This document shows, piece after piece, positions 8,119 through 63,486 of a DNA stretch of 64,000 nt. The notes beneath the pieces were generated by a model. The model made no database searches and had not been told where the DNA came from. It worked only from the letters and a program-made list of their open reading frames with translations. Numbering within the stretch: the stretch's first letter is position 1; every line of letters starts with the position of its first letter. Source of the DNA: Alphaproteobacteria bacterium (GTDB taxonomy: Bacteria; Pseudomonadota; Alphaproteobacteria; UBA8366); assembly GCA_965206405.1 (NCBI GenBank), contig CBDBJQ010000006.1:675061-739060 (forward strand), written 5' to 3'. The position numbers were made by a program, and so were the translations under genes.

Positions 8119-8255
8119 CTGGGTGGGTATCCTGAGCCAATTATCCCGAGTAGATTCAAGGGTTAGAGGACAGCAAGAATCGGGTGTCGGGGGCAGTACC
8201 CGATGGGCATGATGGCACCGTTAGCGCGACTGTTCCGCAGCAAGGAGGCCAGACA

Positions 8256-9165: not shown

Positions 9166-9942
9166 TCAGACGGCGTTGCCCCAGGCCACGAAGGGCGGGT
9201 TTTTGAACCCTTCCTTGGCATAGCGCAGCGGCGCACCGTTTTCCCGCAGAACCCGCCCGCCGGCAGCTTCGAGAATCGCCTGTCCGGCGCCGGTATCCCA
9301 CTCCATGGTGGTGCCGGAACGGGGATAGGCGTCGACCTCGCCCGATGCGACCAGGCAGAATTTGAGCGAACTTCCCATGTGGACGATGTCCTTCAGGGGT
9401 CGGTTCCCGAGAAGCTCTTTCAGATAATCGGTGTTGCGGTGTCGTCTGCTGATGGCGATGGTAACTGCGGCGTCCGCCGGCACCGAGCGCGCGGCAATCA
9501 GCCGGGGCGCGCCACCGTTCTCCTGCATGAAGGCTCCGTTGCCGACGCTGCCATAATAGGTCTTGTCCAGGGCCGGTGCATGGATGACGCCACAGACCGG
9601 GACCGTGTCCTCGACAAGACAGATGTTCATGGTGAATTCGCCGTTGCGGTCGAGAAACTCCCGGGTGCCATCGACGGGATCGATGACCCAAAACTGACTC
9701 TTCCGGGATGCTATGAACTCGTTTTCGCTGAAAGACTCCTCGGCTACGGCCGGCACCCCCGGCACCAGGGCATCGAGCCCAGCGAGAATGATTTCCTCGG
9801 CCAGGATATCGGCCTCGGTGACAGGCGTGTGATCGCCCTTTTGATGCACCTCGAAATCAGTGGCGTAAATCTTCATCACCGCCTCGCCGGCTTCGTGAGC
9901 CAGCTGAACCAAGCTCTTCAGCAACGCGCCGTCCTGCGTCAT
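9166..9942 (-). CDS. cysQ: 3'(2'),5'-bisphosphate nucleotidase (inositol monophosphatase family)
   Basis: Carries the IMPase-family motifs TPVTEADILAEE, WVIDPVDGTREF and EWDTGAGQAILEAAGG. The internal ATG at 9942 is used (MTQDGALLKS); the longer track ORF (to 10401) overlaps the upstream gene out of frame. The start overlaps the upstream stop by 1 nt (TGATG). Confidence 0.85.
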   Translation of the reverse strand: MTQDGALLKSLVQLAHEAGEAVMKIYATDFEVHQKGDHTPVTEADILAEEIILAGLDALVPGVPAVAEESFSENEFIASRKSQFWVIDPVDGTREFLDRNGEFTMNICLVEDTVPVCGVIHAPALDKTYYGSVGNGAFMQENGGAPRLIAARSVPADAAVTIAISRRHRNTDYLKELLGNRPLKDIVHMGSSLKFCLVASGEVDAYPRSGTTMEWDTGAGQAILEAAGGRVLRENGAPLRYAKEGFKNPPFVAWGNAV

Positions 9943-12254
9943 CAGGCGGTTTCCCCAGGGATGGCTTCCCGGATGGTGTGCCAGATCCGCTCCGGTGTTG
10001 CCGGCATGTCGATATGCAGGACACCGAGTGGTGCGAGCGCATCGAGTATCGCGTTGATGACCGTTGGCGGGGCGCCGACAGCGCCGGTCTCGCCGGCCCC
10101 CTTGATGCCGAAGGGATTGGTGCGGCAGGGGTAATCTTCGACCGCTGTCAGGGTAAAATCGGGGAAATCTCCGGCCCGCGGCATCTGGTAGTCCATGAAG
10201 GATCCGTTGAGGAGTTGGCCGTCGTTTCCATACAGGCTGACTTCCATCAACGCCTGGCCTATTCCCTGGACGAGGCCGCCATGCACTTGGCCCTGGAGAA
10301 GCAGCGGATTGACCACCACCCCGAAATCGTCGACTGCGGTATAGCGCTCGATCCGGATCTGTCCTGTCTCCGGATCGATCTCGACCTCGCAGGCGTGGCA
10401 CCCATTGGGGAAACTCATCGCCTCGGCGGTGAACGCACCTTCGCCCGACAGTTCCGGGATGTCGGTTTCGGGCACAGAAGCGGCGACGGAGACGAGATCC
10501 ATGCGCCGGTCAGTGCCGGCGACGGTGAAAATCCCGTCTTCGAAGACGATATCGGCCGCAGCGGCTTCCATGATTTCGGCGGCGATCTCGCGGCCACGCT
10601 CGATGACCGCGTCGACAGCGCGGTTGGCCGCCGGAATGCTGTTCATTGTCGCTCGGGACCCTCCGGTGCCGTTGCCGTCGGGCACGAGGTCGGTGTCTCC
10701 CTGGACCAGCGTCAGTCGTTCCGGCGGCAAGGACAGCCTGTCAGCGACGATTTGGGAAAAAACGGTTCGATGGCCCTGGCCGTTGTCCTGATTGCCGATT
10801 CTGAGGACGACGGAGCCATCAGGATTGACTGTGACCTTGGAGGTTTCCCCAAGGCCAGGTCGCACCCCCTTGACGTAATGGGCGACGCCGAACCCCCGTA
10901 GCAAGCCGGTTTCGGCCGAGGTCTTCCGTCGGGCCGACAGGCCGGCATGGTCGGCTTCCACGAGCGCGCGGTCGAGCAGGGCACTGAAATCTCCCGAATC
11001 GTAGGTCCAATCCAGAACCGTCGTGTGCGGCAGCTGCTCCGGCCGGATGAAGTTCTGCTTCCGGACGGCGATAGAGTCTTCCCCGATGGCGCGGGCGACC
11101 GCCTCGATGGCGCGCTCGACGACGTAGATCGCCTCGGGGTGACCAGCGCCTCTGTAGGCGTCGACAGGCACCGTGTTGGTGAAGACGCCGTGTACCTCGG
11201 CGTAGATAGCTGGAATCGCATAAACCCCGGTCAGCAGGGGTGCACCGCATTCGGTCGCGATATAGGGCGCCGAGGTGGAGACGAACGCGCCGAGATTGGC
11301 GAGGGTTTCGACGCGAAGACCAAGGATTCGGCCAGTTTCGTCATAGCCGACCTCGACATGATTGACCTGGTCGCGCCCGTGTAGATCGGCGGGGAAGGCG
11401 TCTGCGGTCCGCTCGCCGGTCCACCGGACCGGACGGCCGTATTCCTGCGCCGCATGCAGAACCAGTACCTGCTCCGGATAGAGGAAGATTTTCATCCCGA
11501 AGCCGCCGCCGACATCGGGCGTGCGGACGAGGAAAATTTCTTCCGGTTCCCGGAAGATGTGTTTAGAGAGTTGGCGAAGGATTGCGTGCGGGCCCTGCGA
11601 GGTGGTTGTCAGGATCCGGCGTCCATCACGCCATTCGCCGATCGCCACGCGGGGTTCGAGAGAGGCGGCGGACAGCCGGTTGTTGACCAGGTCGAAGACG
11701 AGGCGGTTTGGCGCTGCGGCAAGAGCGCTTTGCGTCGCATCCTCGTCGCCGAGCGACCAGATAAAACTGCGGTTGTCCGGAAAATCCGACCTGATCTGCG
11801 GTGCGCCGGGGCGGGCCGCCTCGGCTGGGTCAGAGATGGCGGTGCGGGGCGCGAACTCGATTTCGATCAGCTCGGCGGCATCCTTCGCCTGCTCGACCGT
11901 TTCGGCGACGACAAAGGCAATGGGTTGGCCGGCATAAAAGACACGGTCCTCGGCCAGAATCGGGAAGCGCGGGCTGCGGATATCGGAGCCATCCTTCTGC
12001 TGGACCGTTCCAAGCACCGGGATCGCTCCGAGCGCGGCGATGTCGGCCGCGGTGGTGATTCCGAGGACTCCGGGAGCGGTTTTCGCCGCTTCCACATTGA
12101 GATTGGTGATGTTGGCGTGGGCATAAGGTGAGCGGAACAGGATGCCGTGTGCGTCGCCGTCAATGGCCCTGTCGTCACTGTAGCGTCCCTGCCCGGTCAG
12201 CAGGCGCGGATCCTCGACGCGCCTGACCGGCTGACCTATGCCAAACTGTCCCAT
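9942..12254 (-). CDS. xanthine dehydrogenase / aldehyde oxidase family molybdopterin-binding large subunit (CoxL-like)
   Basis: 770 aa. The N-terminus MGQFGIGQPVRRVEDPRLLTGQGRYSDD is typical of this family, and there is an internal VDAYRGAGHPEA motif. No FAD or 2Fe-2S partner subunit genes lie next to it. Confidence 0.85.
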   Translation of the reverse strand: MGQFGIGQPVRRVEDPRLLTGQGRYSDDRAIDGDAHGILFRSPYAHANITNLNVEAAKTAPGVLGITTAADIAALGAIPVLGTVQQKDGSDIRSPRFPILAEDRVFYAGQPIAFVVAETVEQAKDAAELIEIEFAPRTAISDPAEAARPGAPQIRSDFPDNRSFIWSLGDEDATQSALAAAPNRLVFDLVNNRLSAASLEPRVAIGEWRDGRRILTTTSQGPHAILRQLSKHIFREPEEIFLVRTPDVGGGFGMKIFLYPEQVLVLHAAQEYGRPVRWTGERTADAFPADLHGRDQVNHVEVGYDETGRILGLRVETLANLGAFVSTSAPYIATECGAPLLTGVYAIPAIYAEVHGVFTNTVPVDAYRGAGHPEAIYVVERAIEAVARAIGEDSIAVRKQNFIRPEQLPHTTVLDWTYDSGDFSALLDRALVEADHAGLSARRKTSAETGLLRGFGVAHYVKGVRPGLGETSKVTVNPDGSVVLRIGNQDNGQGHRTVFSQIVADRLSLPPERLTLVQGDTDLVPDGNGTGGSRATMNSIPAANRAVDAVIERGREIAAEIMEAAAADIVFEDGIFTVAGTDRRMDLVSVAASVPETDIPELSGEGAFTAEAMSFPNGCHACEVEIDPETGQIRIERYTAVDDFGVVVNPLLLQGQVHGGLVQGIGQALMEVSLYGNDGQLLNGSFMDYQMPRAGDFPDFTLTAVEDYPCRTNPFGIKGAGETGAVGAPPTVINAILDALAPLGVLHIDMPATPERIWHTIREAIPGETA

Positions 12255-12349
12255 CGGTTACGGTTTCCGCCCGCTGTGTTCGCCTGCTACCGCCCGTTGC
12301 GGCAAAATGCGGGGCTTTCCTTGCAGCGTTGCCGCTAGGCTGCGGCGGT

Positions 12350-13309
12350 TCAGGAGAAAGCTTCCTCCCAGGAACCCTGGGTCGCGGCGCGGGAATATTC
12401 GGTTACCCTGTTCTCGAAGAAGTTGGCGTGTTCGACGCCGTTCAGCATCTCGTCCATCCAGGGCAGGGGGTTGTGTTCAATTCCGTGGGTAGGTTCAAGG
12501 CCAAGCTGGTCCAATCGCCGGTCGGCGATGTAGCGGATGTACTGCTTGATCTCATCGACGTTGAGTCCCTCGACGCCGCCCATCTCGAAAGCAAGGTCAA
12601 TGAAGGCGTCCTCGTGTTCGATGATGGTTATGCATGCGCCATAGATGTCGGCCTGCAGTTTTTCGGTCCAGATTTCCGGGTTTTCGTCGATGAAGGTTTT
12701 GAACAGGCGGATGATCGAGTTGGTGTGCAGCGATTCATCGCGTGCCGACCAGGTGACGATCTGGCCCATGCCTTTCATCTTGTTGAAACGGGGGAAGTTG
12801 AGCAGGACCGCGAAGCTCGCGAACAGCTGAAGGCCTTCGGTGAAACCACCGAACACGGCCAGCGTCTTGGCGATGTCCTCCTTGGTATCCACCCCCCACT
12901 GCTGCATGAAGTCGTATTTATCCTTCATCTCTTTGTATTTGCGGAAGGCCTGGTACTCGCTTTCCGGCATACCAACCGTATCGAGAAGATGGGAATAGGC
13001 AGCGATGTGGACCGTCTCGATATTGGAGAAGGCGGACAGCATCATCTGCACTTCGGTCGGCATGAAGACCTGTGAGTAATGCTTCATGTAGCAATTATTC
13101 ACCTCGACATCGGCCTGGGTGAAGAAACGGAAAATTTGGGTCAAGAGATTGCGCTCGGCTTCGGTGAGCACCCTGTGCCAGTCCTTGACGTCGTCGGCGA
13201 GCGGTACTTCTTCGGGAAGCCAGTGTATGCGCTGCTGTGTCAGCCAGGCGTCGTACGCCCAAGGGTAGTGGAACGGTTTGTAGGAGGGGTCGGAATCGAG
13301 AAGAGACAT
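12350..13309 (-). CDS. nrdB: class I ribonucleoside-diphosphate reductase beta subunit
   Basis: 319 aa of the ferritin-like R2 family: ...LTEAERNLLTQIFRFFTQADVEV...SAFSNIETVHIAAYSHLLDT...ARDESLHTNS... It lies downstream of the alpha subunit. Confidence 0.9.
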   Translation of the reverse strand: MSLLDSDPSYKPFHYPWAYDAWLTQQRIHWLPEEVPLADDVKDWHRVLTEAERNLLTQIFRFFTQADVEVNNCYMKHYSQVFMPTEVQMMLSAFSNIETVHIAAYSHLLDTVGMPESEYQAFRKYKEMKDKYDFMQQWGVDTKEDIAKTLAVFGGFTEGLQLFASFAVLLNFPRFNKMKGMGQIVTWSARDESLHTNSIIRLFKTFIDENPEIWTEKLQADIYGACITIIEHEDAFIDLAFEMGGVEGLNVDEIKQYIRYIADRRLDQLGLEPTHGIEHNPLPWMDEMLNGVEHANFFENRVTEYSRAATQGSWEEAFS

Positions 13310-35079: not shown

Positions 35080-36531
35080 ATGCCAATGAATGATGGGCCA
35101 ATGAATGATGGCCTCGTTCTCGTCGCCAAGCGCGACTGCCCGACCTGCACGATGCTTGAGCCTGTCTATCGGCAGATCGCCGATGGCGGCCTGTCCATGC
35201 AGATTCACAGCCAGGATGACCCGTCCTTTCCCGAAACCGTCGACGGTGTCCTCGACGACACCGAGCTCGAGGTCTCCTACAGGCTTGGTATCGAGACGGT
35301 GCCGACGCTGATCCGAATGGAGGCGGGCCAGGAGATCGACCGTGCGGTGGGCTGGAGCCGCGACGAATGGGAGCGGGTCGCCGGGGTTCCCGAACTGGGC
35401 CAGACTCTTCCTGATCACCAGCCCGGATGCGGCTCGCGAAGCGTCGAGCCGGGCATGCCGGAACTGCTCGAGATTCGCTACGGCGATGCGCCGCTGGCGT
35501 CGCGCCAAATCGAGGTCACAGCGATCGAGGACGAGGTCGAGGCCTGCTACAGCCGCGGCTGGAGCGACGGTTTGCCGGTGGTGCCGCCAACCCCAGTGCG
35601 GGTCTGGCGGATGCTGCAGGGTACGCCGCGTGATCCGGCGGAGCCTGTTGGCGCCATTCCACCGAACAACGTCCCCTGCACGGTGGAGAAGGTAGCTGTC
35701 AATGCCGTCATGGCCGGGTGCCGGCCGGAATACATGCCGGTTGTGCTGGCCGTCGTCGAGGCGGCGCTTGATCCCGATTTCTGCATGCACGGGATGCTGT
35801 GCACGACGCATTTCGTCGGGCCGATGGTCATCGTCAATGGCCCGATAGCGGCCCGCATTGGCATGAACAGCGGCGTGAACGCCCTCGGACAGGGCAACCG
35901 CGCAAACGCGACCATCGGCCGCACCCTGCAACTGGTGATCCGCAATGTCGGCGGTGGTGTTCCGGGCGGAATCGACCGGGCGACCCTCGGCAACCCGGGC
36001 AAGTACACCTACTGCTTCGCCGAGGATGAATCGAACCCGATCTGGAAGCCGCTGTCCGTCGACCGAGGCGTGGCACCGGGCTGGTCTGCGGTCACGCTCT
36101 ATGGCGGCGAGGGATTGATGGGCAATTTCGACCAGCTGTCCCGGACTCCGGAATCGCTTACCCGGTCGCTGGCCATGTCGATGCGGGCCATTGGCCACCC
36201 CAAGAAAGTCCAGGTCCATGACGTGTTGCTGGTGATTGCACCCGAGCATCTCAGGGTCTATGCAGAAGCAGGCTGGTCGAAGGCGCGGCTGATGCAGGAA
36301 TTCGACGAAGTGCTGTCGTTACCTGGTGAGGATCTGGTGCAGGGAGCCCATGGCGTCGCCGAGGGTATCGCGCCCGAGGGTGTGGGACGCCGCCATGCCA
36401 AGTTCCGGCCTGGCGGCCTCAATATCGTCCGCGCCGGCGGCGAGGCCGGCCTGATGTCGGCCCTCATCGGCGGCTGGGGAGCCACCGGCGAACGGGGAAG
36501 TGAACTGGTCACAAAGGAGATCGACGAATGA
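35080..36531 (+). CDS. thioredoxin-fold (CPTC) domain fused to a ~370-aa domain of unknown function
   Basis: ATG 35080 lies 4 nt after the upstream stop. The N-terminal ~110 aa are LVLVAKRDCPTCTMLEPVY...IETVPTLI (CxxC plus the cis-Pro context of thioredoxins). I do not recognise the remainder (CYSRGWSDGLPVVPPT...AVMAGCRPEYMP...FCMHGMLCTTHF...). The stop overlaps the next start (ATGA). Confidence 0.7.
   Translation: MPMNDGPMNDGLVLVAKRDCPTCTMLEPVYRQIADGGLSMQIHSQDDPSFPETVDGVLDDTELEVSYRLGIETVPTLIRMEAGQEIDRAVGWSRDEWERVAGVPELGQTLPDHQPGCGSRSVEPGMPELLEIRYGDAPLASRQIEVTAIEDEVEACYSRGWSDGLPVVPPTPVRVWRMLQGTPRDPAEPVGAIPPNNVPCTVEKVAVNAVMAGCRPEYMPVVLAVVEAALDPDFCMHGMLCTTHFVGPMVIVNGPIAARIGMNSGVNALGQGNRANATIGRTLQLVIRNVGGGVPGGIDRATLGNPGKYTYCFAEDESNPIWKPLSVDRGVAPGWSAVTLYGGEGLMGNFDQLSRTPESLTRSLAMSMRAIGHPKKVQVHDVLLVIAPEHLRVYAEAGWSKARLMQEFDEVLSLPGEDLVQGAHGVAEGIAPEGVGRRHAKFRPGGLNIVRAGGEAGLMSALIGGWGATGERGSELVTKEIDE
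35083..35112 (+). repeat. in-frame 15-bp tandem duplication (ccaatgaatgatggg/c x2) encoding PMNDG-PMNDG
   Basis: Read directly at codons 2-11 of the thioredoxin-fusion gene. Confidence 0.95.
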
Positions 36532-37049
36532 ATGATTCCATTGTCATGCTTGATCCGACAGGTGAAACCCTGCCGGTCGAGCGTCGGCGCAAGAATCCGC
36601 CGGCATCACTTGAGGGGTTGACCATCGGCGTCCTCGACATTGGCAAGGCGCGCGGTGACGTGTTCTGCGACAGAATCGCCGAGGCGATGGAAGAGCGCGG
36701 ATACACGGTCAAGCAGTATGCCAAACCGACCAACACGCGGGTCGCGCCGCTTGCGCTTTCCCAGCAGATCGCCGCCGAGTGCGACGTCGTCGTCGAGGCA
36801 CTAAGCGACTGAGGATCCTGCACGTCGTGCAGTTTGCATGACATTGCGGATCTTGACGAAAGAGGCATCCCCGGCGGGATGATCGCCACCACGGCTTTTG
36901 AGCAGGCGGCAGAGGCGCAGGCCGCAGCACTCGGCTTCCAGCCTGGGATCGTCTACGTGCCGCATCCGATACAGGATCGCACCGACGAGGAAATCAGGGC
37001 TATCGCCGATGCCGCGATGGAGCCGGTCCTGCGCATGATCACCGCCTGA
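36528..37049 (+). CDS. candidate selenoprotein, 'UGSC family (seleno)protein'-like; in-frame TGA at 36810-36812 read as Sec
   Basis: Track ORFs 36528-36812 and 36834-37049 share one frame (both starts are divisible by 3). They are separated by TGA plus 7 sense codons, giving ...VVVEALSD-U-GSCTSCSLHDIADLDERGIP.... The second ORF 'starts' at TTG with no SD. A hairpin lies immediately 3' of the TGA. The ATG overlaps the upstream stop (ATGA). Confidence 0.7.
36813..36853 (+). promoter_or_regulatory. candidate SECIS region: two hairpins directly 3' of the in-frame UGA
   Basis: Hairpin 1 is CUGCAC-GUC-GUGCAG (36818-36832). Its apical GCA-cGUCg-UGC resembles the E. coli fdhF apical GCA-GGUC-UGC as I recall it. 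Hairpin 2 spans 36833-36850 (UUUGCA-UGACAU-UGCGGA, 6 bp including 2 G.U pairs). GGAUCC (36813-18) could also pair with GGAUCU (36848-53) to enclose both. Confidence 0.4.
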
Positions 37050-37055
37050 AACGAC

Positions 37056-38072
37056 GTGGCAGAGGGCAATCCGTTGTCGGAAAGCAGCAAAGACGACGAA
37101 GAACGTCTTGGGCCAGAGATTCCATCCGATTGCCGGCCGCAGCCGGAGAACTGCTCCTTTGACCTGCGCGCGGCGCTGTTGGCGGTGTATTCGATTGTCT
37201 GCCACATTCCGCAGGATGCCTACACGGCGCCCCTACTCGGTATGGAGCGCAGCGGCAACGCCGTTCTGATTGACAAGAGCGGGCTGTTCCTCACTGTCGG
37301 CTACCTGGTCACCGAGGCCGAGACTATCTGGCTTCTCGACAACGCCGGCCGCGCTGTGCCAGGACATGTTGCCGCCTATGACCAGGAAACCGGCTTCGGG
37401 CTGGTTCAGGCGTTAGGCCGGATCGAGACCGCACCGCTCGATATCGGCATCTCTTCCAATCTCAAGATTGGCGATCCGGTAATCGTCGCCGGCGGTGGTG
37501 GCATCAGCCACGCAATCCAGGCCGAGGTGGTGGCGGTCCGGGAGTTCGCGGGCTATTGGGAGTACTTGCTCGATTCCGCGGTCTTCACAGCACCACCGCA
37601 TCCGCTCTGGGGCGGCACCGCTCTGCTTGGGAACGACGGTACCCTGCGTGGAATCGGATCGCTCTTCGTCCAGCAAACCCAGGACGGCCAGGAGCCGGTC
37701 GACGTCAACATGATGGTGCCGATCGACATCCTCAAGCCAATCATGGAAGAGCTGCTCCGGAACGGAAAGACCGCTAAGCCGCCGCGGCCGTGGCTTGGCA
37801 TGTTCACGACCGAGATCGACGACAGGGTCATGGTTGCCGGGATTGCCGATGACGGCCCGGCGGCTCGTGCTGGAGTCCATGTCGGTGATGCCGTTCTCAG
37901 TATCGGCGGCGCGCCGGTTTCCTGCATGGCCGACATGTTCCGCACAATCTGGTCGAGGGGTGCGGCCGGGATCGACATCCCGCTCCACCTAGGCCGGGGC
38001 GGGGATACGATCGAGGTTGCCGTCCGATCGATCAGCCGGAGCGATCTCTTGCGGTCGCCGGCGGTCCACTGA
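37056..38072 (+). CDS. trypsin-fold (S1C/HtrA-like) plus PDZ domain protein, apparently without the catalytic triad
   Basis: 338 aa with a GTG start 6 nt after the selenoprotein stop. The HtrA-like blocks are GLFLTVGYLV (His position is Tyr), ETGFGLVQ (Asp position is Gly) and HPLWGGTALLGNDG (the GNSGG Ser position is Gly). A C-terminal PDZ-like segment reads WLGMFT...VAGIADDGPAARAGVHVGDAVLSIGG. All alignment was done by eye. Confidence 0.7.
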   Translation: MAEGNPLSESSKDDEERLGPEIPSDCRPQPENCSFDLRAALLAVYSIVCHIPQDAYTAPLLGMERSGNAVLIDKSGLFLTVGYLVTEAETIWLLDNAGRAVPGHVAAYDQETGFGLVQALGRIETAPLDIGISSNLKIGDPVIVAGGGGISHAIQAEVVAVREFAGYWEYLLDSAVFTAPPHPLWGGTALLGNDGTLRGIGSLFVQQTQDGQEPVDVNMMVPIDILKPIMEELLRNGKTAKPPRPWLGMFTTEIDDRVMVAGIADDGPAARAGVHVGDAVLSIGGAPVSCMADMFRTIWSRGAAGIDIPLHLGRGGDTIEVAVRSISRSDLLRSPAVH

Positions 38073-38115
38073 GTCTGCGGATTCGGCCGGAAACGCTGGG
38101 GCTGTCGGGGGTACC

Positions 38116-40683
38116 GTGGATCGGATCGATGTGGGCCGGCTCGATCTGTGCCGGGAGTTCCGCGACAACCCGCTTGGACCGCACAGTCTCGAACTCCAGA
38201 AGCTGATCAAGCTCCTGCGCTGGGAGCCGGTCGACAACCGCTACCTTCTGGCCCAGACCGAACGCAACGGCCCCTGGTATCTCGCCTACGCATCCGGCCC
38301 GAAGAGCCGTCCGCTCGAGATTTTCCGCGACCGCGCCTTCGCCACTCTCCATGAGGGTTGGTGGGCGCTGTTCAAGGCCCGCTGGGAGTGTCTCGCCGGC
38401 CAACGGATGGTGCTCGACGGTGTCGACGATCCACCGATTCCCCGGCCGGGAGAGGGAGAGCCAACCGGCGCCCTCGTCGACCGGCCACTGCTTTCCTACA
38501 GCGACCGCTTCAGCGTTCCGGCCGGTGGCAGGATCGCGTTCAAGGTCAGCTCCCGCGACGATCTGCCATACCGTGCCGATATCATCCGCCTGCGTTGCGG
38601 CGATGCGAGTCCGGGCGGAGTCGGCCACAAGCAGGAGGCGGTCGGGACACCGATCGACGGCGAGTATCCCGGCCGGTTCCAGCCCATCGATGCAGGCTCT
38701 TATGCCGAGATCGGCGACATTCCCGCGGTACCCGGCGATGGCGGCGTGGCGTTGCAGGCCTGGATCTGGCCAACCGCGCCTGGCGGCCGCGCACAAGCGG
38801 TGATGGGCAATTGGGATGCTTCGGCCGGCTCGGGTTTTGCGCTTGCCATAGACGAGAGCGGCGCGCTTGTCTTTCACGTCGGCGACGGCACACAACAGAT
38901 GACGGTGTCGACCGGAACGCCGTTGCTTGAGCGCCACTGGTATCTGGTGGCGGCAAGCTTCGATCCCGACACCGGCCGCGCCTGGGTCGGCCAGCGGCCG
39001 CTTCTCGGTTATGCACGCGACGACACCACGGCGGAACAGGAAGCGTCCGCGCCGGTACCGGCGGCGGGGCCGGGATTTCGGATCGCCGCCTGGCATGGCC
39101 GCGACGGCGAGCGTCTGATACCCGCGGGCCACTACAACGGCAAGATCGACTCGCCCGTCCTCGCTGCGGGCGCCCTTACGGCAGAAGAGCGGCGGGTAAT
39201 CCTTGCCGAGGGCAACCCGGCGGCGATCGCCGATGCTGCTGCGCGCTGGGATTTTTCCCGCGATATTCCGGGCCTGACAATCAGAGACGTGTCCGGCAAC
39301 GATTGCCACGGCACCACCGTCAATCTGCCGACCCGGGCGATGAAGGGATGGAATTGGGACGGAAGCGAGTACAACTGGGCCTGCAAACCGGAGCAGTACG
39401 GCGCCATCCATTTCCATGACGACGATTTGCACGATTGCGGCTGGGAGACCGATTTCACTTTCGAGGTGCCGGAGGATCTCGCCAGCGGCATCTATTGCGC
39501 TCATCTCACCCGCGATGGGCGCGAGGATTACTGCCCGTTTGTGGTCACGGCGCCACCGGGGCGCACCGAGGCCGATCTCGCCCTGCTTCTGCCCACCGCC
39601 AGCTACTGGGCTTACGCCAACCGGCATGTCGACCTGGAGTGGCAGGAGCGCGAGAATGTCGTCGGTTACTGGGCGGCGCTTGACTCCGTGTCGCTCTATC
39701 TCTGCGAGCACCCGGAGCTCGGCGTGTCGATGTACGACGACCACAGCGACGGCTCGGGCGTTTGTCTTGCATCGCGGCTGCGGCCGATCCTCAGCATGCA
39801 GCCGAAAGAACGCCTCTGGCAGTTCGCCGCCGACACCCACATCACCGACTGGCTCGAGGCGCGAGGCATCGCCTATGACGTGATTACCGAGGATGATCTC
39901 GATGCTGCGGGGACGTCGCTGCTCGAACCCTATCGCTGCGTGATCACCGGAACCCACCCTGAATATCCCTCGAAGAGCGTGCTGGACGCGATCCTCGACT
40001 ATCAGAACCGTGGCGGCCGCTTCGTTTATTTCGGTGGCAACGGGTTTTACTGGCGAGTCTCCTATTCGCCGGACATTCCCGGCGCGATGGAGATGCGCCG
40101 AGCCGAAGACGGAATCCGCTCGTGGCTTGCCGAGGGCGGGGAGTACTACCACGCCTTCACCGGCGAGCTCGGCGGCATGTGGCGGCGGATGGGCCGGCCT
40201 CCGCAGAGCGTCGCCGGCACCGGCATGACGGCGCAGGGTTTCGATTATTCGGCCTCGTATGCACGCAACCCGGAGAGCTTCGATGCGCGCGCCATGTTCA
40301 TCTTCGAGGGCGTCGGGGCGGAGGAGCGAATCGGCGATTTCGGGTTGTTCGGTGGCGGCGCTGCGGGATGGGAGATCGACCGCGCCGATCCGGCCCTGGG
40401 CACGCCGCCGCATGCGCTGGTCGTGGCCACGGCGACGGAGTTTTCCGCCGCCTATCACTGGGTCAAGGAAGAGCTGACGCACACCCATTCCGCCAACACC
40501 GGCGATACCTGTCCGATGGTCCGCTGTGATATGGTGTTTTACGAAACGCCCAATGGTGGTGCGGTGTTCTCGACCAGCTCGATCGCCTGGGCTGGCGCGC
40601 TGGCCCATAACAGCTACGACAACAACGTCGCGCGCATCTCCGAGAACGTGATCCGGCGGTTTATCGACCCGCAACCGCTCTAA
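38116..40683 (+). CDS. N,N-dimethylformamidase large-subunit-like protein (LamG-like and GATase-like domains) with a ~125-aa N-terminal extension
   Basis: From about aa 125 there is strong similarity to DmfA2 as I remember it: DRFSVPAGGRIAFKV..., HYNGKIDSPVL, WDFS, GWNWDG, PEQYGAIHFHDDDLHDCGWETDFTFEVPE, SYWAYAN, MYDDH, ITGTHPEY, GGGAAGWEIDR. Start chosen at GTG 38116 after GGGGG; the track start 38017 overlaps the previous gene. Confidence 0.75.
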   Translation: MDRIDVGRLDLCREFRDNPLGPHSLELQKLIKLLRWEPVDNRYLLAQTERNGPWYLAYASGPKSRPLEIFRDRAFATLHEGWWALFKARWECLAGQRMVLDGVDDPPIPRPGEGEPTGALVDRPLLSYSDRFSVPAGGRIAFKVSSRDDLPYRADIIRLRCGDASPGGVGHKQEAVGTPIDGEYPGRFQPIDAGSYAEIGDIPAVPGDGGVALQAWIWPTAPGGRAQAVMGNWDASAGSGFALAIDESGALVFHVGDGTQQMTVSTGTPLLERHWYLVAASFDPDTGRAWVGQRPLLGYARDDTTAEQEASAPVPAAGPGFRIAAWHGRDGERLIPAGHYNGKIDSPVLAAGALTAEERRVILAEGNPAAIADAAARWDFSRDIPGLTIRDVSGNDCHGTTVNLPTRAMKGWNWDGSEYNWACKPEQYGAIHFHDDDLHDCGWETDFTFEVPEDLASGIYCAHLTRDGREDYCPFVVTAPPGRTEADLALLLPTASYWAYANRHVDLEWQERENVVGYWAALDSVSLYLCEHPELGVSMYDDHSDGSGVCLASRLRPILSMQPKERLWQFAADTHITDWLEARGIAYDVITEDDLDAAGTSLLEPYRCVITGTHPEYPSKSVLDAILDYQNRGGRFVYFGGNGFYWRVSYSPDIPGAMEMRRAEDGIRSWLAEGGEYYHAFTGELGGMWRRMGRPPQSVAGTGMTAQGFDYSASYARNPESFDARAMFIFEGVGAEERIGDFGLFGGGAAGWEIDRADPALGTPPHALVVATATEFSAAYHWVKEELTHTHSANTGDTCPMVRCDMVFYETPNGGAVFSTSSIAWAGALAHNSYDNNVARISENVIRRFIDPQPL

Positions 40684-40754
40684 TATGCCTGAATATTAAT
40701 ACGCCTGACCATTGGCGTTCGGCGCCGGTTCTGCCTATCGTCGCCCCTGTTTTC

Positions 40755-42230
40755 ATGGAGCCACGACTGATGACCGAACTACACTACCTGCCGGCTGTCG
40801 ATCTCGCGGCGCGGATCCGCGACCGCGAGATTGGTTGCCTCGAGCTTCTCGACCACTTTCTCGAGCGTTGCGACCGCCACAATCCGACGCTTAACGCCGT
40901 CATCGCCTGGGATCGGGAAGGCGCGCGCGCCCGGGCTCGCGAAGCCGACGAGGCGCTGGCTGGCGGCAATCTCTGGGGTCCTCTGCACGGGGTGCCGATG
41001 ACCATCAAGGAAAGCTATGACGTCGCCGGCATGCCGACGACCTGGGGCTGGCCGAACATGCGCAACAACGTCGCCGAAAAGAACTCGGTGGTCGTCGATC
41101 GGATGCTCGCGGCCGGCGTGGTGCTGTTCGGCAAGACCAATGTGCCTTTGTTCCTGTCCGACTGGGAAAGCTTCAACGAAATCTACGGCACTACCAACAA
41201 CCCGTGGGATATTGAGCGCTCGCCCGGCGGATCCTCGGGCGGATCCGCAGCGGCGCTGGCAGCCGGGCTGACAGGAATCGAATCCGGCAGCGATATCGGC
41301 GCTTCGATCCGCAACCCCGCGCATTACTGTGGCGTGTTCGGACACAAGCCGACCTGGGGCATTGTGCCGCCGCGTGGCCAGGCGCTGCCCGGTGTTCTCT
41401 CCCAGACGGACATCTCCGTGGTTGGGCCGATGGCCCGCAGCGCCGAAGATCTGGCCGTGGCGCTCGACTGCATGGCCGGGCCGGACGCGCTCGAGGCCGA
41501 CGGGATCGATCTCGACCTGCCGCAGCCGGCGCAAACGGATCTCTCCGAGTTCCGCGTTGCGGTGATGCAGAGCGACGATGTCTGCCCCGTCGATGCGCCC
41601 TATGCCGACCGCATCCAGGAGGTTGCCGATAAGCTCGCCGAGCTTGGTGCCGTGGTCGACGACAAGGCTCGGCCCGATATCGACATGGCGCGGTCACACG
41701 AGATCTATGTCCAGCTGCTCCGGGGCGCGACTGCAGCCCGGATGCCCGATGGCGAGTTCAGCGAGAATCTGCGCCTCGCCGGCAAACTCGATGCGAGTGA
41801 CGACAGCTATCGGGCCCGGGCGTTTCGCGCCATGACCCAGTACCACCGGGACTGGGCAGGGGCCAACGAGGAGCGGACCCACATGCGCTGGGCCTGGCAC
41901 CGGTTTTTCCAGGATTGGGATGTCCTGCTCTGTCCGGCCGCTTCCTCCGCTGCTTTCCCGCACATGCAGAAAGGCGAGCGTTGGGACCGCTTCATCACCG
42001 TCAATGGTGAGCCGCAATCGGTGGTCGACCAGCTGTTCTGGGCCGGCCTGACCTGCGTCGTCTACCTGCCGGCGACGGTGGCACCGATCGGCCGTGTCGG
42101 TCCCGGCACGGGCCTTCCGGTCGGCGCCCAGATTGCGGGCCCGTCGATGCACGACCACCGGACGATCGCCTTTGCCGGCCTTCTTGCGCGTGAGATCGGC
42201 GGTTTCGAGCCGCCGCCGGGCTGGGATTGA
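40755..42230 (+). CDS. amidase (amidase-signature family)
   Basis: 491 aa with the AS-family core GGSSGGSAAALAAGL...GSDIGASIRNPA. An alternative start is ATG 40770. Confidence 0.9.
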   Translation: MEPRLMTELHYLPAVDLAARIRDREIGCLELLDHFLERCDRHNPTLNAVIAWDREGARARAREADEALAGGNLWGPLHGVPMTIKESYDVAGMPTTWGWPNMRNNVAEKNSVVVDRMLAAGVVLFGKTNVPLFLSDWESFNEIYGTTNNPWDIERSPGGSSGGSAAALAAGLTGIESGSDIGASIRNPAHYCGVFGHKPTWGIVPPRGQALPGVLSQTDISVVGPMARSAEDLAVALDCMAGPDALEADGIDLDLPQPAQTDLSEFRVAVMQSDDVCPVDAPYADRIQEVADKLAELGAVVDDKARPDIDMARSHEIYVQLLRGATAARMPDGEFSENLRLAGKLDASDDSYRARAFRAMTQYHRDWAGANEERTHMRWAWHRFFQDWDVLLCPAASSAAFPHMQKGERWDRFITVNGEPQSVVDQLFWAGLTCVVYLPATVAPIGRVGPGTGLPVGAQIAGPSMHDHRTIAFAGLLAREIGGFEPPPGWD

Positions 42231-60425: not shown

Positions 60426-61402
60426 ACCTGATTCACAATAACATCAGGTAGCTGAGAACGGATGTATCCTTACCGATTTGGTCAGGCTGTTTTCAAATTC
60501 ATGTTTGCCAGCGCCCCGACGTTCTTGGCAATCATGTTTTCCTGCCGGTTGCCGCGGTGAGTTTCGGCAAATATTCCGAACTTTTTCATCCGGCCAATAC
60601 CGTGCTCCACGCCGATACGTAGCTTTGCGTGCCAAGCGTTGTAAGTTTTCTGTTCGTCCGTAAGGGGGTGGTTCTTTGAGGCTTTGAGCGGGATTTCAAG
60701 CGATGTTCCCAGATAACCGAGATCACCAAGTACAAGCACACCCGGTGGCTTATCCACGCGCGCCTCGTCGTAGATACGCTTGTCATGTGCGCGCCCGGGT
60801 TGCGCCGGGCCAACCGCCAGAACCCGTTTTTTGTCATCGGTGATGATCTGATGTGAGGCCGTGTGGTGCTTTTTCTTGCCGGAATACTTCGCCTTGCGAT
60901 GCGAGAGCTTTTTCGGACGTTGAACCGGACGCTCCGTGCCGTCAATCATCAGGTAAAGCAGGTCATCCCTCTCTGACGCCGACAGCCTGATCTTGCGCTC
61001 CGGCATCCGGAAATGTCCTGCCATCAATTCTGTCATGGCAGCAATCCGACGGCAAACCGTAGGGGACGAGACACCGAACAGAAGACCCATAAAGGCCTGA
61101 CTGGTATAGGTGCGATAATACATCAAGCAGAGCAGCAATTGCTCGGCAAATTCCAAACGGTAGTTCATCCCGCCACCGATCGCGCGTTGTCTGTCTTCAC
61201 GTGAAAGCCGGTGGTGCTCACGTTCAAGCCAGATCGGATGAAGAACAACAACCAATGCCTCGAAATCCTGAAGACGGATACCTGAAAGGCGGAAAAACAA
61301 ATCAGCGCGCCCCCGCAAAACCTTCAAAACCCTCATAGACAAGCCCTCACTCTCCATTGAGCCATGAACATCGCTGAAAATCGGCTATTGCGCAACAGGT
61401 TT
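60426..61402 (-). mobile_element. complete IS element (about 977 bp), IS5-superfamily with a DDE_Tnp_4 / Harbinger-like transposase
   Basis: Imperfect terminal inverted repeats: a(g)ACCTGATTCACAATAAC at 60424/6 and AAACCTGTTGCGCAATAGC (reverse complement ending at 61402), 14/19 identical. A direct repeat cttag flanks both ends (60421-25 and 61403-07). Confidence 0.8.
60482..61357 (-). CDS. IS transposase (HTH_Tnp_4 plus DDE_Tnp_4)
   Basis: 291 aa with DDE-type blocks LMIDGTERPVQRP, LGDLGYLG and VEHGIGRMKKF. Confidence 0.85.
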   Translation of the reverse strand: MESEGLSMRVLKVLRGRADLFFRLSGIRLQDFEALVVVLHPIWLEREHHRLSREDRQRAIGGGMNYRLEFAEQLLLCLMYYRTYTSQAFMGLLFGVSSPTVCRRIAAMTELMAGHFRMPERKIRLSASERDDLLYLMIDGTERPVQRPKKLSHRKAKYSGKKKHHTASHQIITDDKKRVLAVGPAQPGRAHDKRIYDEARVDKPPGVLVLGDLGYLGTSLEIPLKASKNHPLTDEQKTYNAWHAKLRIGVEHGIGRMKKFGIFAETHRGNRQENMIAKNVGALANMNLKTA

Positions 61403-61616
61403 CTTAGGTACTGGGGGATATTCCTGGTCGGCGTCTGGCCTCGGGGTGTCTCGAGGTCTTCCGTTTTTCAGAGGAGGTTTTCGACTTCCTCGCCCATTTC
61501 ACCTTGTAGGCTGCACCGCGGCTCTGGACCCAATTGAGATTTTAGATCTCGATCAGGGGTAAATAGCGTAAAATTTATATTACCCCCTCGCCTCTGATGA
61601 TTTTTTTACCTATGAT

Positions 61617-61847
61617 ATGCAACACGCCAAGGGGGCAAAAATGCCCCGTGGCGACAAAAAAGCCATCATGAGATACCCAATTCCAATCCCGCCTCTCGAA
61701 GAGCAAGCCCGCATCGTCGCCATTCTCGATAAATTCGACGCATTGGTAAACGATCTTTCCAGCGGCCTGCCCGCCGAACTCACGGCTCGCCGTCGGCAGT
61801 ACCAATATTACCGCGACAGATTACTCGAGTTTCGGGAAGCGGCCTGA
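61617..61847 (+). pseudogene. hsdS: remnant of a type I restriction-modification specificity subunit (HsdS C-terminal conserved region only)
   Basis: ...[53 protein letters not shown] is the conserved C-terminal helix region of HsdS. No target-recognition domains are left upstream. Confidence 0.65.
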
Positions 61848-62419
61848 TGCCAGTTTGCTGGATCATCGCGGGGCCCAATGGCGTGGGAAAAACCACCTTT
61901 GCGCTGGAGTACCTGCCTCAGGTGTCGAGTAATGCCCATTTCATTAATGCCGACCTGATTGCCGCCGGGCTTTCCCCCCTCGCACCTGAACGAAAATTAC
62001 TTGCCGCCAGCCGTATCTTTCTACGTGAGATCAAACAGCGCATTGCGGCCCGCGAAAACTTCGCCTTTGAAACCACCTTGGCAGGGCGCACCTATCTGCG
62101 GTTAGTCGAACGCCTGCAACCTGATGGCTGGCGGGTAGAGCTGATCTACATGGCCTTGCCCAATGTTGAAATGTCGAAGCAGCGCGTGGCCGAGCGGGTC
62201 GCCCACGGCGGGCATAATATTCCTGCAACGGATATAGAACGACGCTTTCCGCGCAGTCTGCGCCACCTACTTGACGATTTCAGTCATCGTGTCGATAGCT
62301 GTACGTGTTTCATGAACGACGGCGAAAATTCGGCGCTGGTATTCGAGCAGCATGGCAATGACAGGGATATTATCCATGACGACGACTACCAGTTTCTGCT
62401 TGAGGGGATCAACCAGTGA
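61847..62419 (+). CDS. zeta-toxin-like P-loop kinase (AAA/zeta toxin family)
   Basis: 190 aa with Walker [13 protein letters not shown] near the N-terminus and ...VAHGGHNIP...RRF.... The ATG overlaps the hsdS-remnant stop (TGATG). GC is lower than in the core genome. Confidence 0.7.
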
Positions 62420-62586
62420 ACATAGTAAGAAAAAACATGCCTTCGCCGGAAGGACAACAACAACTGAAAATTCTCCGTCAGGCCGTCCGCAAGGCCTTGG
62501 AGAGAAAGCGGCGATTGGGCCAGTACGCCGTGGTCTGGCAGGATGGCAAACCGGTCAGAAAAGGTGAGGATGCACCGGATCGGTAG
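62416..62586 (+). CDS. small ORF (49-56 aa) coupled to the zeta-like gene; possible cognate partner or antitoxin
   Basis: It is not in the track because it is under 60 aa. GTG 62416 overlaps the upstream TGA (GTGA), with an alternative ATG at 62437; the stop is TAG 62584-86. Translation: (VNIVRKN)[49 protein letters not shown]. Confidence 0.4.
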
Positions 62587-62637
62587 TGGGTCAGTTTGAA
62601 TTTTAAGCTATCCATATACTGTCATATCTGAAATAAT

Positions 62638-63449
62638 AAACCTGTTGCACAATAGCCGATTTTCAGCGATCTTTATGGCTCAATGGAGAGTGAGGACTTG
62701 TCTATGAGGGTTTTGAAGGTTTTGCGGGGGCGCGCTGATTTGTTTTTCCGCCTTTCAGGTATCCGTCTTCAGGATTTCGAGGCATTGGTTGTTGTTCTTC
62801 ATCCGATCTGGCTTGAACGTGAGCACCACCGGCTTTCACGTGAAGACAGACAACGCGCGATCGGTGGCGGGATGAACTACCGTTTGGAATTTGCCGAGCA
62901 ATTGCTACTCTGCTTGATGTATTATCGCACCTATACCAGTCAGGCCTTTATGGGTCTTCTGTTCGATGTCTCGTCCGCTACGGTTTGCCGTCGGATTGCT
63001 GCCATGACAGAATTGATGGCAGGACATTTCCGGATGCCGGAGCGCAAGATCAGGCTGTCGGCGTCAGAGAGGGATGACCTGCTTTACCTGATGATTGATG
63101 GCACGGAGCGTCCGGTTCAACGCCCGAAAAAGCTCTCGCATCGCAAGGCGAAGTATTCCGGCAAGAAAAAGCACCACACGGCCTCACATCAGATCATCAC
63201 CGATGACAAAAAACGGGTTCTGGCGGTTGGTCCGGCGCAATCCGGGCGCGCACATGACAAGCGTATCTACGACGAGGCGCGCGTGGATAAGCCACCGGGT
63301 GTGCTTGTACCTGGTGATCTCGGTTATCTGGGAACATCGCTTGAAATCCCGCTCAAAGCCTCAAAGAACCACCCCCTTACGGACGAACAGAAAACTTACA
63401 ACACTTGGCACGCAAAGCTGCGTATCTCCGTGGAGCACGGTATTGGCCG
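62638..63449 (+). mobile_element. second, inverted and 3'-truncated copy of the same IS
   Basis: It begins with the same end, AAACCTGTTGCACAATAGC (62638). By eye it differs from copy 1 only at scattered positions, up to ...ggtattggccg (63449), where similarity stops. Confidence 0.8.
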
Positions 63450-63486
63450 CAAGGGAATAGACGGGGCGTACTCCTGTACGCTGTAG
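62683..63486 (+). pseudogene. truncated transposase of IS copy 2
   Basis: It matches the copy 1 protein up to VEHGIGR, with about 6 substitutions seen by eye (for example G5D, G85D, P89A, VLVLGD to VLVPGD). It then runs into unrelated sequence (KGIDGAYSCTL*). Confidence 0.75.

Follow-up and report, generated by a model that had tools for sequence, protein, structure and literature searches.

Does the TGA at positions 36810-36812 of the window (the whole 64-kb stretch of DNA analysed here) close a short gene, or is it read as selenocysteine (Sec) inside a longer one? A sequence-only reading had proposed that two neighbouring open reading frames, ORF 1 (36528-36812) and ORF 2 (36834-37049), form a single selenoprotein gene. 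On re-reading, both were indeed found in the same frame, with the TGA as the sole interruption, followed by the codons GGA TCC TGC ACG TCG TGC AGT, so that read-through yields the expected product of 173 aa containing ...VVVEALSD-U-GSCTSCSLHD.... Our analyses show that 36528-37049 is one gene of the UGSC family; its UGA is very probably recoded as Sec with a SECIS hairpin downstream, and its product may take part in a redox relay with the protein encoded by an adjoining partner gene. The elements of the gene itself are as follows.

36528-37049, forward strand: UGSC-family selenoprotein gene, from the start codon ATG at 36528 to the stop codon TGA at 37047-37049; 173 aa, with predicted Sec at residue 95.
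36514-36519, forward strand: Shine-Dalgarno sequence AAGGAG, 8 nt 5' of the UGSC ATG, read off the sequence.
36810-36812, forward strand: in-frame TGA, predicted to be read as selenocysteine (U95), in the motif D-U-G-S-C-T-S-C.

As had been noticed, ORF 2 has no usable start codon or Shine-Dalgarno sequence of its own. The TTG at 36834 with which it nominally begins is merely the codon of Leu103, and the nearest Shine-Dalgarno-like sequence, GAGGA at 36811-36815, lies about 19 nt upstream, a spacing too great for it to be usable. A scan of the whole 64-kb window for other in-frame TGA junctions returned ordinary gene boundaries only. The expectation that a gene caller would split a gene of this kind is borne out by the closest public relative, GCA_054013835.1, where it appears as two fragments of 94 and 57 aa, both of which match Pfam PF24696. 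The predicted junction peptide that spans the TGA in the window reads ...ECDVVVEALSD-U-GSCTSCSLHDIADLDER.

The family name given in the earlier reading, 'UGSC family (seleno)protein', proved to be the right one. Queried with C substituted for U, the window protein exceeded the curated cut-offs of both NCBIfam NF041046 UGSC_fam (134.9 bits against 125, profile positions 2-146 of 147) and PF24696 (132.9 bits against 25, positions 2-171 of 172). Membership of PF07355 was considered as well and rejected, as hmmscan at E<=10 gave PF24696 plus three chance-level matches (E 0.09-0.16) and no PF07355. The possibility had been raised that homologues might end at the TGA or align to one half only; the best 120 are all 170-198 aa long and cover both halves, and the alignment crosses the junction without a gap and has invariant positions to either side of it, as befits a single protein. 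Residues D94-C101, H104, D105 and H146 are invariant in this alignment, and LSD[C]GSCTSCS occurs in 118 of the 120 homologues. The junction motif D-[U/C]-G-S-C-T-S-C-x-x-H-D does not vary among homologues, and therefore its restoration across the TGA is more than chance.

The column of the TGA alternates between Sec and Cys codons. It is occupied by Cys in 119 of the 120 protein homologues and by TGA in other genes, the two outcomes that the sequence-only reading had proposed to look for. Across 76 genome loci the codon is TGC in 55, TGT in 14 and TGA in seven, these last falling in Alphaproteobacteria, Burkholderiales and Actinomycetota, and TGA stands at the same column in at least 120 metagenome contigs; at least 130 other genes carry it there. 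Cys-form hosts include Methylobacterium, Bradyrhizobium and Sphingosinicella. The window protein is 47-56% identical to Cys forms from genome collections and about 80% identical, across the C-terminal half, to the nearest metagenomic Sec forms; locus L197, the closest relative, agrees with the window in both TGA and hairpin. When compared with the closest relatives, the sequence 3' of the TGA gave dN/dS values of 0.06-0.29 at dS of 0.8-2.3; it is under purifying selection.

A second line of evidence comes from the RNA that follows the UGA. The 6-bp hairpin noticed in the sequence-only reading exists (CUGCAC-GUC-GUGCAG, 36818-36832, -6.5 kcal/mol), but as a SECIS it gives way to a stronger hairpin that overlaps it, the two being mutually exclusive. 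The elements of the preferred structure are listed below.

36824-36842, forward strand: candidate apical SECIS hairpin, GUCGUGCA-GUU-UGCAUGAC, -9.1 kcal/mol, part of the minimum free energy (MFE) fold.
36812-36818 paired with 36848-36854, and 36820-36822 paired with 36845-36847, forward strand: candidate SECIS lower stem, in the fold that includes the apical hairpin.

The whole fold, apical hairpin plus lower stem, reaches -23 kcal/mol (z = -2.7), and its loop G-U at 36832-36833 occupies nucleotides 23-24 counted from the U of the UGA. The inner 5 bp of the hairpin at 36824-36842 pair in all 124 TGA forms compared, against 101 of 124 for the hairpin at 36818-36832, which is probably not the functional one. 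We prefer the former as the SECIS because it alone explains two features of the Sec forms, the constraint on codon 103 and the invariance of the loop G-U. Close relatives retain a lower stem, with differing sequences, and the register that it has in the window is not conserved family-wide. Covariation for the full MFE structure of the window was not significant and did not exceed shuffle controls; support for the hairpin as a putative SECIS comes from its conservation and from the contrast in codon choice between Sec and Cys forms.

That contrast is sharp. In TGA forms, codon 100 is NCG in 122 of 124, and all 124 have TGC at codon 101, AGT or TGT at codon 102 (0 of 69 Cys forms) and G as the third base of codon 103, whereas Cys forms are free in their synonymous choices at codons 100-103. 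Even the amino acid differs at residue 103, where Cys forms have Thr and most Sec forms Val, Leu or Met, a change that we attribute to the pairing requirement of the family-specific SECIS. All 124 TGA forms have the core 5-bp stem and the loop GU, compared with 17 of 69 Cys forms for the stem (Fisher p=1e-32) and 1 of 69 for the loop, and on average they fold more stably (MFE -18.2 kcal/mol, Cys forms -13.7 kcal/mol, p=4e-12). Of the whole contrast, codons included, a part could be phylogenetic, since the Sec set was gathered by a pattern scan over the broad family and the Cys set represents a closer subfamily. The covariance-model check suggested for the region after the TGA was made with a model of Sec forms built without the window sequence, and it found a unique match at 36810-36856 (66.0 bits, E=3e-17); the same model gave 66.9 bits for L197 as an independent Sec form and 16-46 bits for the 69 Cys forms. 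No SECIS family of Rfam matched at the gathering threshold over the whole window, nor at E<=10 on 36400-37200, mostly because Rfam covers little of the diversity of bacterial SECIS elements.

These codon choices bear directly on the simplest objection, that the gene is a Cys form in which a TGC has turned into TGA by mutation or sequencing error, with no Sec involved. A single base separates the two codons, and the window holds no Sec machinery that would speak to the contrary. Nevertheless, the window has the full set of synonymous choices of the Sec forms (TCG-TGC-AGT-TTG), including an AGT at codon 102 that none of the 69 Cys forms shares, and on the Sec-form model it outscores the best Cys form by 20 bits. 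A chance lesion would also have to have left the same TGA and hairpin in L197 and the selective constraint 3' of the TGA. Taken together, these observations bring a pseudogene or sequencing error close to refuted.

If the UGA is recoded, the hairpin of the mRNA at 36824-36842 would serve as its SECIS, the binding site from which SelB, loaded with Sec-tRNA(Sec), would bring Sec to the ribosome. None of selA, selB, selC (tRNA-Sec) and selD was detected within the 64-kb window, so that Sec decoding in this genome is something we infer; given that sel genes usually lie elsewhere in the chromosome, their absence from the window says little. Other UGSC loci place the machinery close at hand. The tRNA-Sec gene lies 0.25-2.7 kb from UGSC in four TGA-form loci and in no Cys-form locus, selB homologues are present in seven TGA-form loci, and in one of the TGA forms (L148) both selA and selB (TIGR00475, 415 bits against a cut-off of 242) adjoin UGSC. 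This recurrent clustering with selA, selB and selC offers one starting point towards the function of the family.

Sporadic loss of the Sec trait is known among bacteria, and it could be argued that this lineage has lost Sec decoding, so that translation now stops at the UGA to give a 94-aa product, or two products, with the SECIS and ORF 2 as recent relics. The lack of Sec-machinery genes in the 64 kb fits such a loss, with the reservation already made about where sel genes usually lie. Against it, hairpin and coding sequence 3' of the UGA are both undamaged and conserved when set beside long-diverged relatives, at the dS and dN/dS values given above, and ORF 2 lacks any usable start codon or Shine-Dalgarno sequence from which a second product could be made. 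We regard a loss of decoding as very improbable, though slightly less so than a pseudogene or sequencing error, and retain the reading of the UGA as Sec.

What the protein might do is suggested in the first place by its neighbour.

35080-36531, forward strand: partner gene, 483 aa, with an N-terminal thioredoxin fold carrying CPTC (C20/C23) and an unannotated domain of about 360 aa.

The stop codon of the partner overlaps the UGSC start in an ATGA at 36528-36531, through which translation of UGSC is coupled to that of the gene upstream. A partner of about 480 aa lies directly upstream of UGSC on the same strand in 171 of 196 loci, and the two genes form a conserved pair. The partner family comprises at least 8000 homologues and has no Pfam domain on record. 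Structure comparison supports the thioredoxin fold of the N-terminal domain, and a search of PDB sequences with the partner profile returned thioredoxins only, all in this domain. The C-terminal part of about 360 aa had no match in Pfam, NCBIfam or PDB sequences; three of its cysteines, C117 (in the context PGCGS), C214 and C312, are conserved family-wide, and a metagenomic partner (L092, a single case) has a TGA and a hairpin exactly at C117. A likeness of the C-terminal domain to class I fumarate hydratases, obtained with Foldseek, was set aside as unreliable (TM 0.23, rmsd 17 Å). Fusions of partner and UGSC were likewise discarded. Upstream of UGSC, 23 loci have no stop in its frame over more than 300 codons, but what this stretch would encode is Arg/Gly-rich nonsense, and for that reason we take it for the GC-rich partner gene read in another frame.

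Clustering of the ORFs of the 196 loci gave no third conserved gene beyond the partner-UGSC pair. The next real ORF families were TctC-like (17 loci), TrxB-like (13 loci, mostly Methylobacterium, Bradyrhizobium and Xanthobacter, possibly through synteny), ABC ATPase and S9 peptidase. Several of the clusters in this comparison consist of shadow ORFs. The trypsin/PDZ, DMFA2_C-like and amidase genes that lie downstream in the window are conserved in its closest relative only.

The fold of UGSC was approached through a Cys homologue (P0001) 55% identical to the window protein, whose AlphaFold2 model has a pLDDT of 89.5. Although UGSC has been described as of 'likely Trx-like fold' (PMC2398784), no thioredoxins appeared among the best PDB structure matches of this model, which were flavodoxins, TIR domains and the flavodoxin domains of FprA (TM 0.4-0.5); a search of PDB sequences with the UGSC profile gave no match. 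The model thus predicts a flavodoxin-like alpha/beta fold, not that of thioredoxin. In it, U95 is predicted to lie where strand beta-3 ends, capping the N-terminus of the helix that carries C98 and C101, a placement that a redox-active UxxC selenenylsulfide centre would typically have.

On these grounds, UGSC and its partner might constitute a thiol/selenol redox relay, in which electrons would pass between the thioredoxin domain and conserved cysteines of the partner and U95/C98 of UGSC to act on a substrate. In its most specific form, to which we give slightly less than even chances, UGSC would not work alone but be the small Se/S subunit of an obligate two-gene system, with the C-terminal part of the partner as a catalytic domain and C117 of the partner shuttling on a flexible linker between the thioredoxin domain, C214/C312 and U95/C98. 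If this two-gene reading is true, it would define a new and very widespread oxidoreductase system and give a handle on a selenoprotein family abundant in aquatic environments.

The same residues could be arranged otherwise. Sec might be inserted as proposed and yet U95, C98 and C101, perhaps joined by H104 and H146, might coordinate a metal or a cluster of the iron-sulfur type, so that UGSC would serve the C-terminal domain of the partner as a subunit that carries electrons or handles metal and not as a selenenylsulfide oxidoreductase. The U/C-x-x-C-x-x-C spacing with invariant H104, D105 and H146 would suit such a site, as would a flavodoxin-like fold, typical of cofactor carriers, and the three further cysteines conserved family-wide in the C-terminal domain of the partner. 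The sole full-length structural likeness of the partner is moreover to the [4Fe-4S] class I fumarate hydratases; it is weak (probability 0.8, at the TM-score given above), and its rmsd makes the match an unreliable guide. On the other hand, a UxxC motif in which Sec and Cys alternate where the helix has its N-terminal cap is the classic signature of thiol oxidoreductases (PMC2398784), and an adjoining thioredoxin domain with CPTC suits dithiol exchange. Ligation of a metal or cluster therefore seems to us unlikely, if clearly more plausible than the two objections to recoding, and we continue to favour the thiol/selenol relay.

Publications on the UGSC family go back to 2007, and it figures as 'UGSC-containing protein' in the metagenome selenoproteomes of Zhang & Gladyshev, with ABI76733.1 of Hyphomonas neptunium as their example. 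Few selenoprotein families are as abundant in aquatic metagenomes, GOS having 255 Sec forms of it. The belief that its function is uncharacterised holds good, as a 2026 review still lists it so, and no experimental evidence on UGSC function was found in the literature. Concrete leads towards it are the nearly obligate, translationally coupled partner with its thioredoxin and unannotated domains, the flavodoxin-like fold and the family-specific SECIS. For the genome at hand, the main value lies in correct annotation, since standard callers split such genes and leave both the selenoproteome and the Sec trait under-reported.

Set against known systems, the window gene is a regular member of the UGSC family with nothing essential different; it shares the full-length match, the D-U-G-S-C-T-S-C motif, the Sec/Cys column and a length of around 150-180 aa. 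Its RNA element resembles the SECIS of E. coli fdhF, which is likewise a stem-loop directly 3' of the UGA within the coding sequence with a loop G-U at nucleotides 23-24, and in which the SelB-binding G23/U24 sit in the apical loop (PMC8659212, review). In contrast to fdhF, the window fold has no equivalent of the bulged U17, its apical stem is a perfect 8 bp closed by a 3-nt loop (5 nt in some relatives), and the contact with SelB is a predicted one. At the protein level, a parallel is found in GrdB and PrdB (PF07355) of glycine and D-proline reductase, also small to medium UxxC selenoproteins, whose cycle is reset by the thioredoxin system. By analogy only, UGSC would have its thioredoxin domain encoded in the adjoining, translationally coupled gene, while its partner is not GrdA/E- or PrdA-like. 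The hosts differ too, UGSC occurring in aerobic Proteobacteria and Actinomycetota, and GrdB/PrdB in amino-acid-fermenting Firmicutes.

Two open reading frames on the forward strand, 36528–36812 and 36834–37049, share one frame in which the sole intervening stop is the TGA at 36810–36812. Together they form one UGSC-family gene, whose read-through product of 173 aa contains the junction ...VVVEALSD-U-GSCTSCSLHD..., much as the sequence-only reading had proposed. A strong Shine-Dalgarno sequence (AAGGAG, 36514–36519) lies 8 nt upstream of the ATG of the first ORF; the second had been described as devoid of both ATG and Shine-Dalgarno sequence, and its TTG 'start' is indeed a Leu codon within the gene, from which no ribosome-binding site is suitably spaced. 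The gene and its upstream neighbour are arranged as follows:

35080–36531, forward strand: partner gene, 483 aa, directly upstream of the UGSC gene
36528–37049, forward strand: UGSC gene, with the in-frame TGA (36810–36812) proposed as Sec (U95)

The coding sequence 3′ of the TGA is under purifying selection (dN/dS of 0.06–0.29 against the closest relatives), and we consider it very probable that the gene truly encodes a UGSC selenoprotein and bears a SECIS.

Profile searches, run with Cys in place of Sec, matched both the NCBIfam model NF041046, 'UGSC family (seleno)protein' (134.9 bits, cut-off 125, profile positions 2–146 of 147), which is the family named in the earlier reading, and the Pfam model PF24696, 'UGSC' (132.9 bits, cut-off 25, positions 2–171 of 172). 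Among 5.8 billion proteins searched, 514 homologues were found, and the best 120 of them, all of 170–198 aa, cover both halves instead of ending at the TGA or aligning to one side of it; 119 of these 120 have Cys at the TGA column, within a near-invariant LSDCGSCTSCS motif. Since Sec forms cannot show in protein databases, DNA was searched directly for homologues with TGA at that column (TGA forms). The codon was present in 7 of 76 genome loci, despite seed patterns favouring Cys forms, with hosts in Rhodospirillales and other Alphaproteobacteria, Burkholderiales and Actinomycetota, while a TGA-specific pattern matched at least 120 metagenome contigs. An HP[IMLV] motif is kept 3′ of the TGA in 119 of the 128 TGA-motif matches from genome and metagenome loci. 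As anticipated for standard gene callers, the UGSC gene of the closest public relative (L197, GCA_054013835.1) has been called as two pieces of 94 and 57 aa, each matching PF24696.

Because the peptide motif is itself conserved, nucleotide conservation alone would be no proof, and synonymous codons were compared instead.

Codons 3′ of the TGA column in 124 distinct TGA forms and 69 Cys forms, two sets that were sampled differently
Codon 100: TGA forms, NCG in 122/124; Cys forms, TCC, TCG, TCA and TCT all in use
Codon 101: TGA forms, TGC in 124/124; Cys forms, TGC in 54 and TGT in 15
Codon 102: TGA forms, AGT or TGT in 124/124; Cys forms, AGT or TGT in 0/69
Codon 103: TGA forms, G-ending in 124/124 (Val, Leu or Met 112, Thr 9, Ser 3); Cys forms, mostly Thr (ACC or ACG)

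Codons 96, 97 and 99, serving as an internal control, vary freely among TGA forms, and the constraints on the other codons are precisely those required for a hairpin. Its 5-bp core pairs in 124/124 TGA forms versus 17/69 Cys forms (Fisher p = 1e-32), its loop has G-U at nt 23–24 from the UGA in 124/124 versus 1/69, and mean folding energies are −18.2 versus −13.7 kcal/mol (p = 4e-12). The TGA forms are thus under an RNA constraint of their own, placed and with loop bases as in bacterial SECIS elements. A covariance model over the TGA region, a check that had been suggested, was built from 123 relatives with the window left out; it gave a single match in the window, at 36810–36856 (66.0 bits, E = 3e-17), compared with 66.9 bits for the independent Sec form L197 and 16–46 bits for the 69 Cys forms. 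The change of residue 103 (window 36834–36836; columns 28–30 of the alignment A2) appears dictated by the pairing requirement of the SECIS.

The 6-bp hairpin originally pointed out, CUGCAC-GUC-GUGCAG (36818–36832, −6.5 kcal/mol), exists and is enriched in TGA forms (101/124 versus 6/69 Cys forms), but it is not universal, it leaves codon 103 and the invariant U at nt 24 unexplained, and it shares nucleotides with a stronger, competing hairpin, GUCGUGCA-GUU-UGCAUGAC (36824–36842, −9.1 kcal/mol). Together with a lower stem, the latter gives the region its lowest-energy fold (−23 kcal/mol, z = −2.7), a stability matched by 1 in 200 shuffled sequences. Pair counts on this full structure gave no significant covariation, and the register of the lower stem varies across the diverse TGA set, close relatives retaining the stem with differing sequences; hence the RNA evidence consists of conservation and the Sec/Cys contrast, not of covariation.

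Within the window, no tRNA genes were found, nor selA, selB or selD among ~55 scanned ORFs, and its genes are ordinary chromosomal ones (ftsH, glmM-like, thiD-like, Ada-like, molybdo-hydroxylase, nrdAB, panE, ABC transporters, gltBD, pstSCAB-phoB-like and gapR), of which gapR points to an alphaproteobacterium. Elsewhere in the family, ARAGORN located tRNA-Sec in four TGA-form loci (L051, at 8932–9025 in UGSC orientation, L115, L131 and L148), 0.25–2.7 kb downstream of the UGSC gene, and none in 760 kb of Cys-form loci, a proximity with a Poisson probability of ~2e-5 for a single-copy gene. Seven TGA-form loci, but no Cys-form locus, have a selB homologue beside UGSC; at L148 (4446–7755, UGSC-oriented), UGSC is next to selB (TIGR00475, 415 bits, cut-off 242), to a TrxR-like gene and to the end of selA. 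These neighbours indirectly support Sec decoding of the family.

The UGSC gene is translationally coupled to a conserved partner with a thioredoxin domain, whose stop codon overlaps the UGSC start (ATGA) and whose own start at 35080 is confirmed by the database copy P0121. In 171 of 196 UGSC loci a partner homologue immediately precedes UGSC in the same orientation, never on the opposite strand, with a median spacing equal to the 94 N-terminal UGSC codons, and nearly all the remaining loci are contigs that end too soon. At least 8000 homologues of the partner exist, each ~479 aa long; no Pfam domain is recorded for them, and 'thioredoxin' is the only name they bear. The first ~100 aa of the partner adopt a thioredoxin fold with CPTC (TM 0.55–0.72 to many thioredoxins). 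The remaining ~360 aa, for which searches of Pfam-A, NCBIfam and PDB sequences at thresholds as lax as E <= 10 returned nothing and structure comparison gave no reliable match, may represent a widespread, undescribed domain family. Cysteines C20, C23, C117 (PGCGS), C214 and C312 are conserved family-wide. At the metagenome locus L092 (Ga0208881_1000100, ~9260–9340, UGSC-oriented), a TGA falls exactly at the C117 column (KPG-U-GSLTVDPG) and is followed by an 8-bp hairpin, GGUCGAUC-CCGGGCG-GAUCGAC, so that this partner may be a Sec form, though a single locus could reflect an error. Apparent partner–UGSC fusions proved to be frame artefacts. Within its first codons (35080–35112) the partner gene has a direct duplication, CCAATGAATGATGG(G/C), encoding MPMNDGPMNDG, and the UGSC gene, too, begins with ATGAATGAT (MND).

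No third gene conserved around the pair was found. The window genes 3′ of UGSC (37056–42227, forward strand) encode a trypsin-like/PDZ protease, an N,N-dimethylformamidase beta subunit-like protein (DMFA2_C) and an amidase. In GCA_054013835.1, whose partner is 75% identical, the syntenic order is partner, UGSC, trypsin/PDZ and amidase (the last two at 10011–12460), but the protease and amidase are not generally kept around UGSC. A TrxR-like gene occurs within ~5 kb of the pair in 12 of 76 loci having enough flank (L002, L007, L016, L027, L032, L036, L041, L044, L060, L062, L074 and L148), mostly in Methylobacterium, Bradyrhizobium and Xanthobacter, which could reflect clade synteny or a functional link. 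At the window edge, DDE_Tnp_4 transposases (60482–61354, reverse; 62683–63483, forward) around a zeta-toxin/AAA_33-like gene (61847–62416) may form a composite mobile element (60482–63483). In some bacteria, the O6-methylguanine-DNA methyltransferase family includes proteins with Sec; the Ada-like gene of the window, joining such a domain to an AraC-HTH (8184–9125, forward), is an uninterrupted ORF and hence a Cys form.

The AlphaFold2 model of P0001, the closest natural Cys homologue (55% identical), confidently predicts a five-stranded alpha/beta/alpha sandwich (pLDDT 89.5, pTM 0.85) with the Sec-equivalent Cys between strand 86–92 and helix 95–110. Foldseek returned only generic flavodoxin-like folds at TM 0.4–0.5 (flavodoxins, FprA flavodoxin domains, TIR domains) and no thioredoxins, and no PDB sequence relatives of UGSC were found. 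This predicted fold contradicts the remark that the family has a 'likely Trx-like fold' (PMC2398784). We propose that Sec would be inserted at U95 in this organism in a SelB-dependent manner, that U95 and C98 may form a selenenylsulfide redox centre at the helix N-terminus, and that UGSC would exchange electrons with the CPTC and conserved cysteines of its partner, acting on a substrate. Alternatively, U/C-x-x-C-x-x-C together with the invariant His and Asp could serve as a metal or cluster site.

UGSC-containing proteins have been on selenoprotein family lists since 2007 and figured prominently in the GOS metagenomes, where Sec forms numbered 255 and Cys forms 21. Their function is still given as unknown in a review of 2026, in line with the earlier reading. 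The family is already known, with curated NCBIfam and Pfam models, and the window gene is a further member that will not surprise a specialist. In the papers searched we found no description of the partner gene that nearly always accompanies UGSC, of its own flavodoxin-like fold, of a family-specific SECIS altering residue 103 or of the clustering with selA, selB and selC, results which modestly raise the value of the finding. The UGSC protein differs from GrdB and PrdB, to which no sequence similarity was detected. Its hairpin resembles the E. coli fdhF SECIS, where SelB contacts G23 and U24, in having G-U at nt 23–24 from the UGA (PMC8659212).
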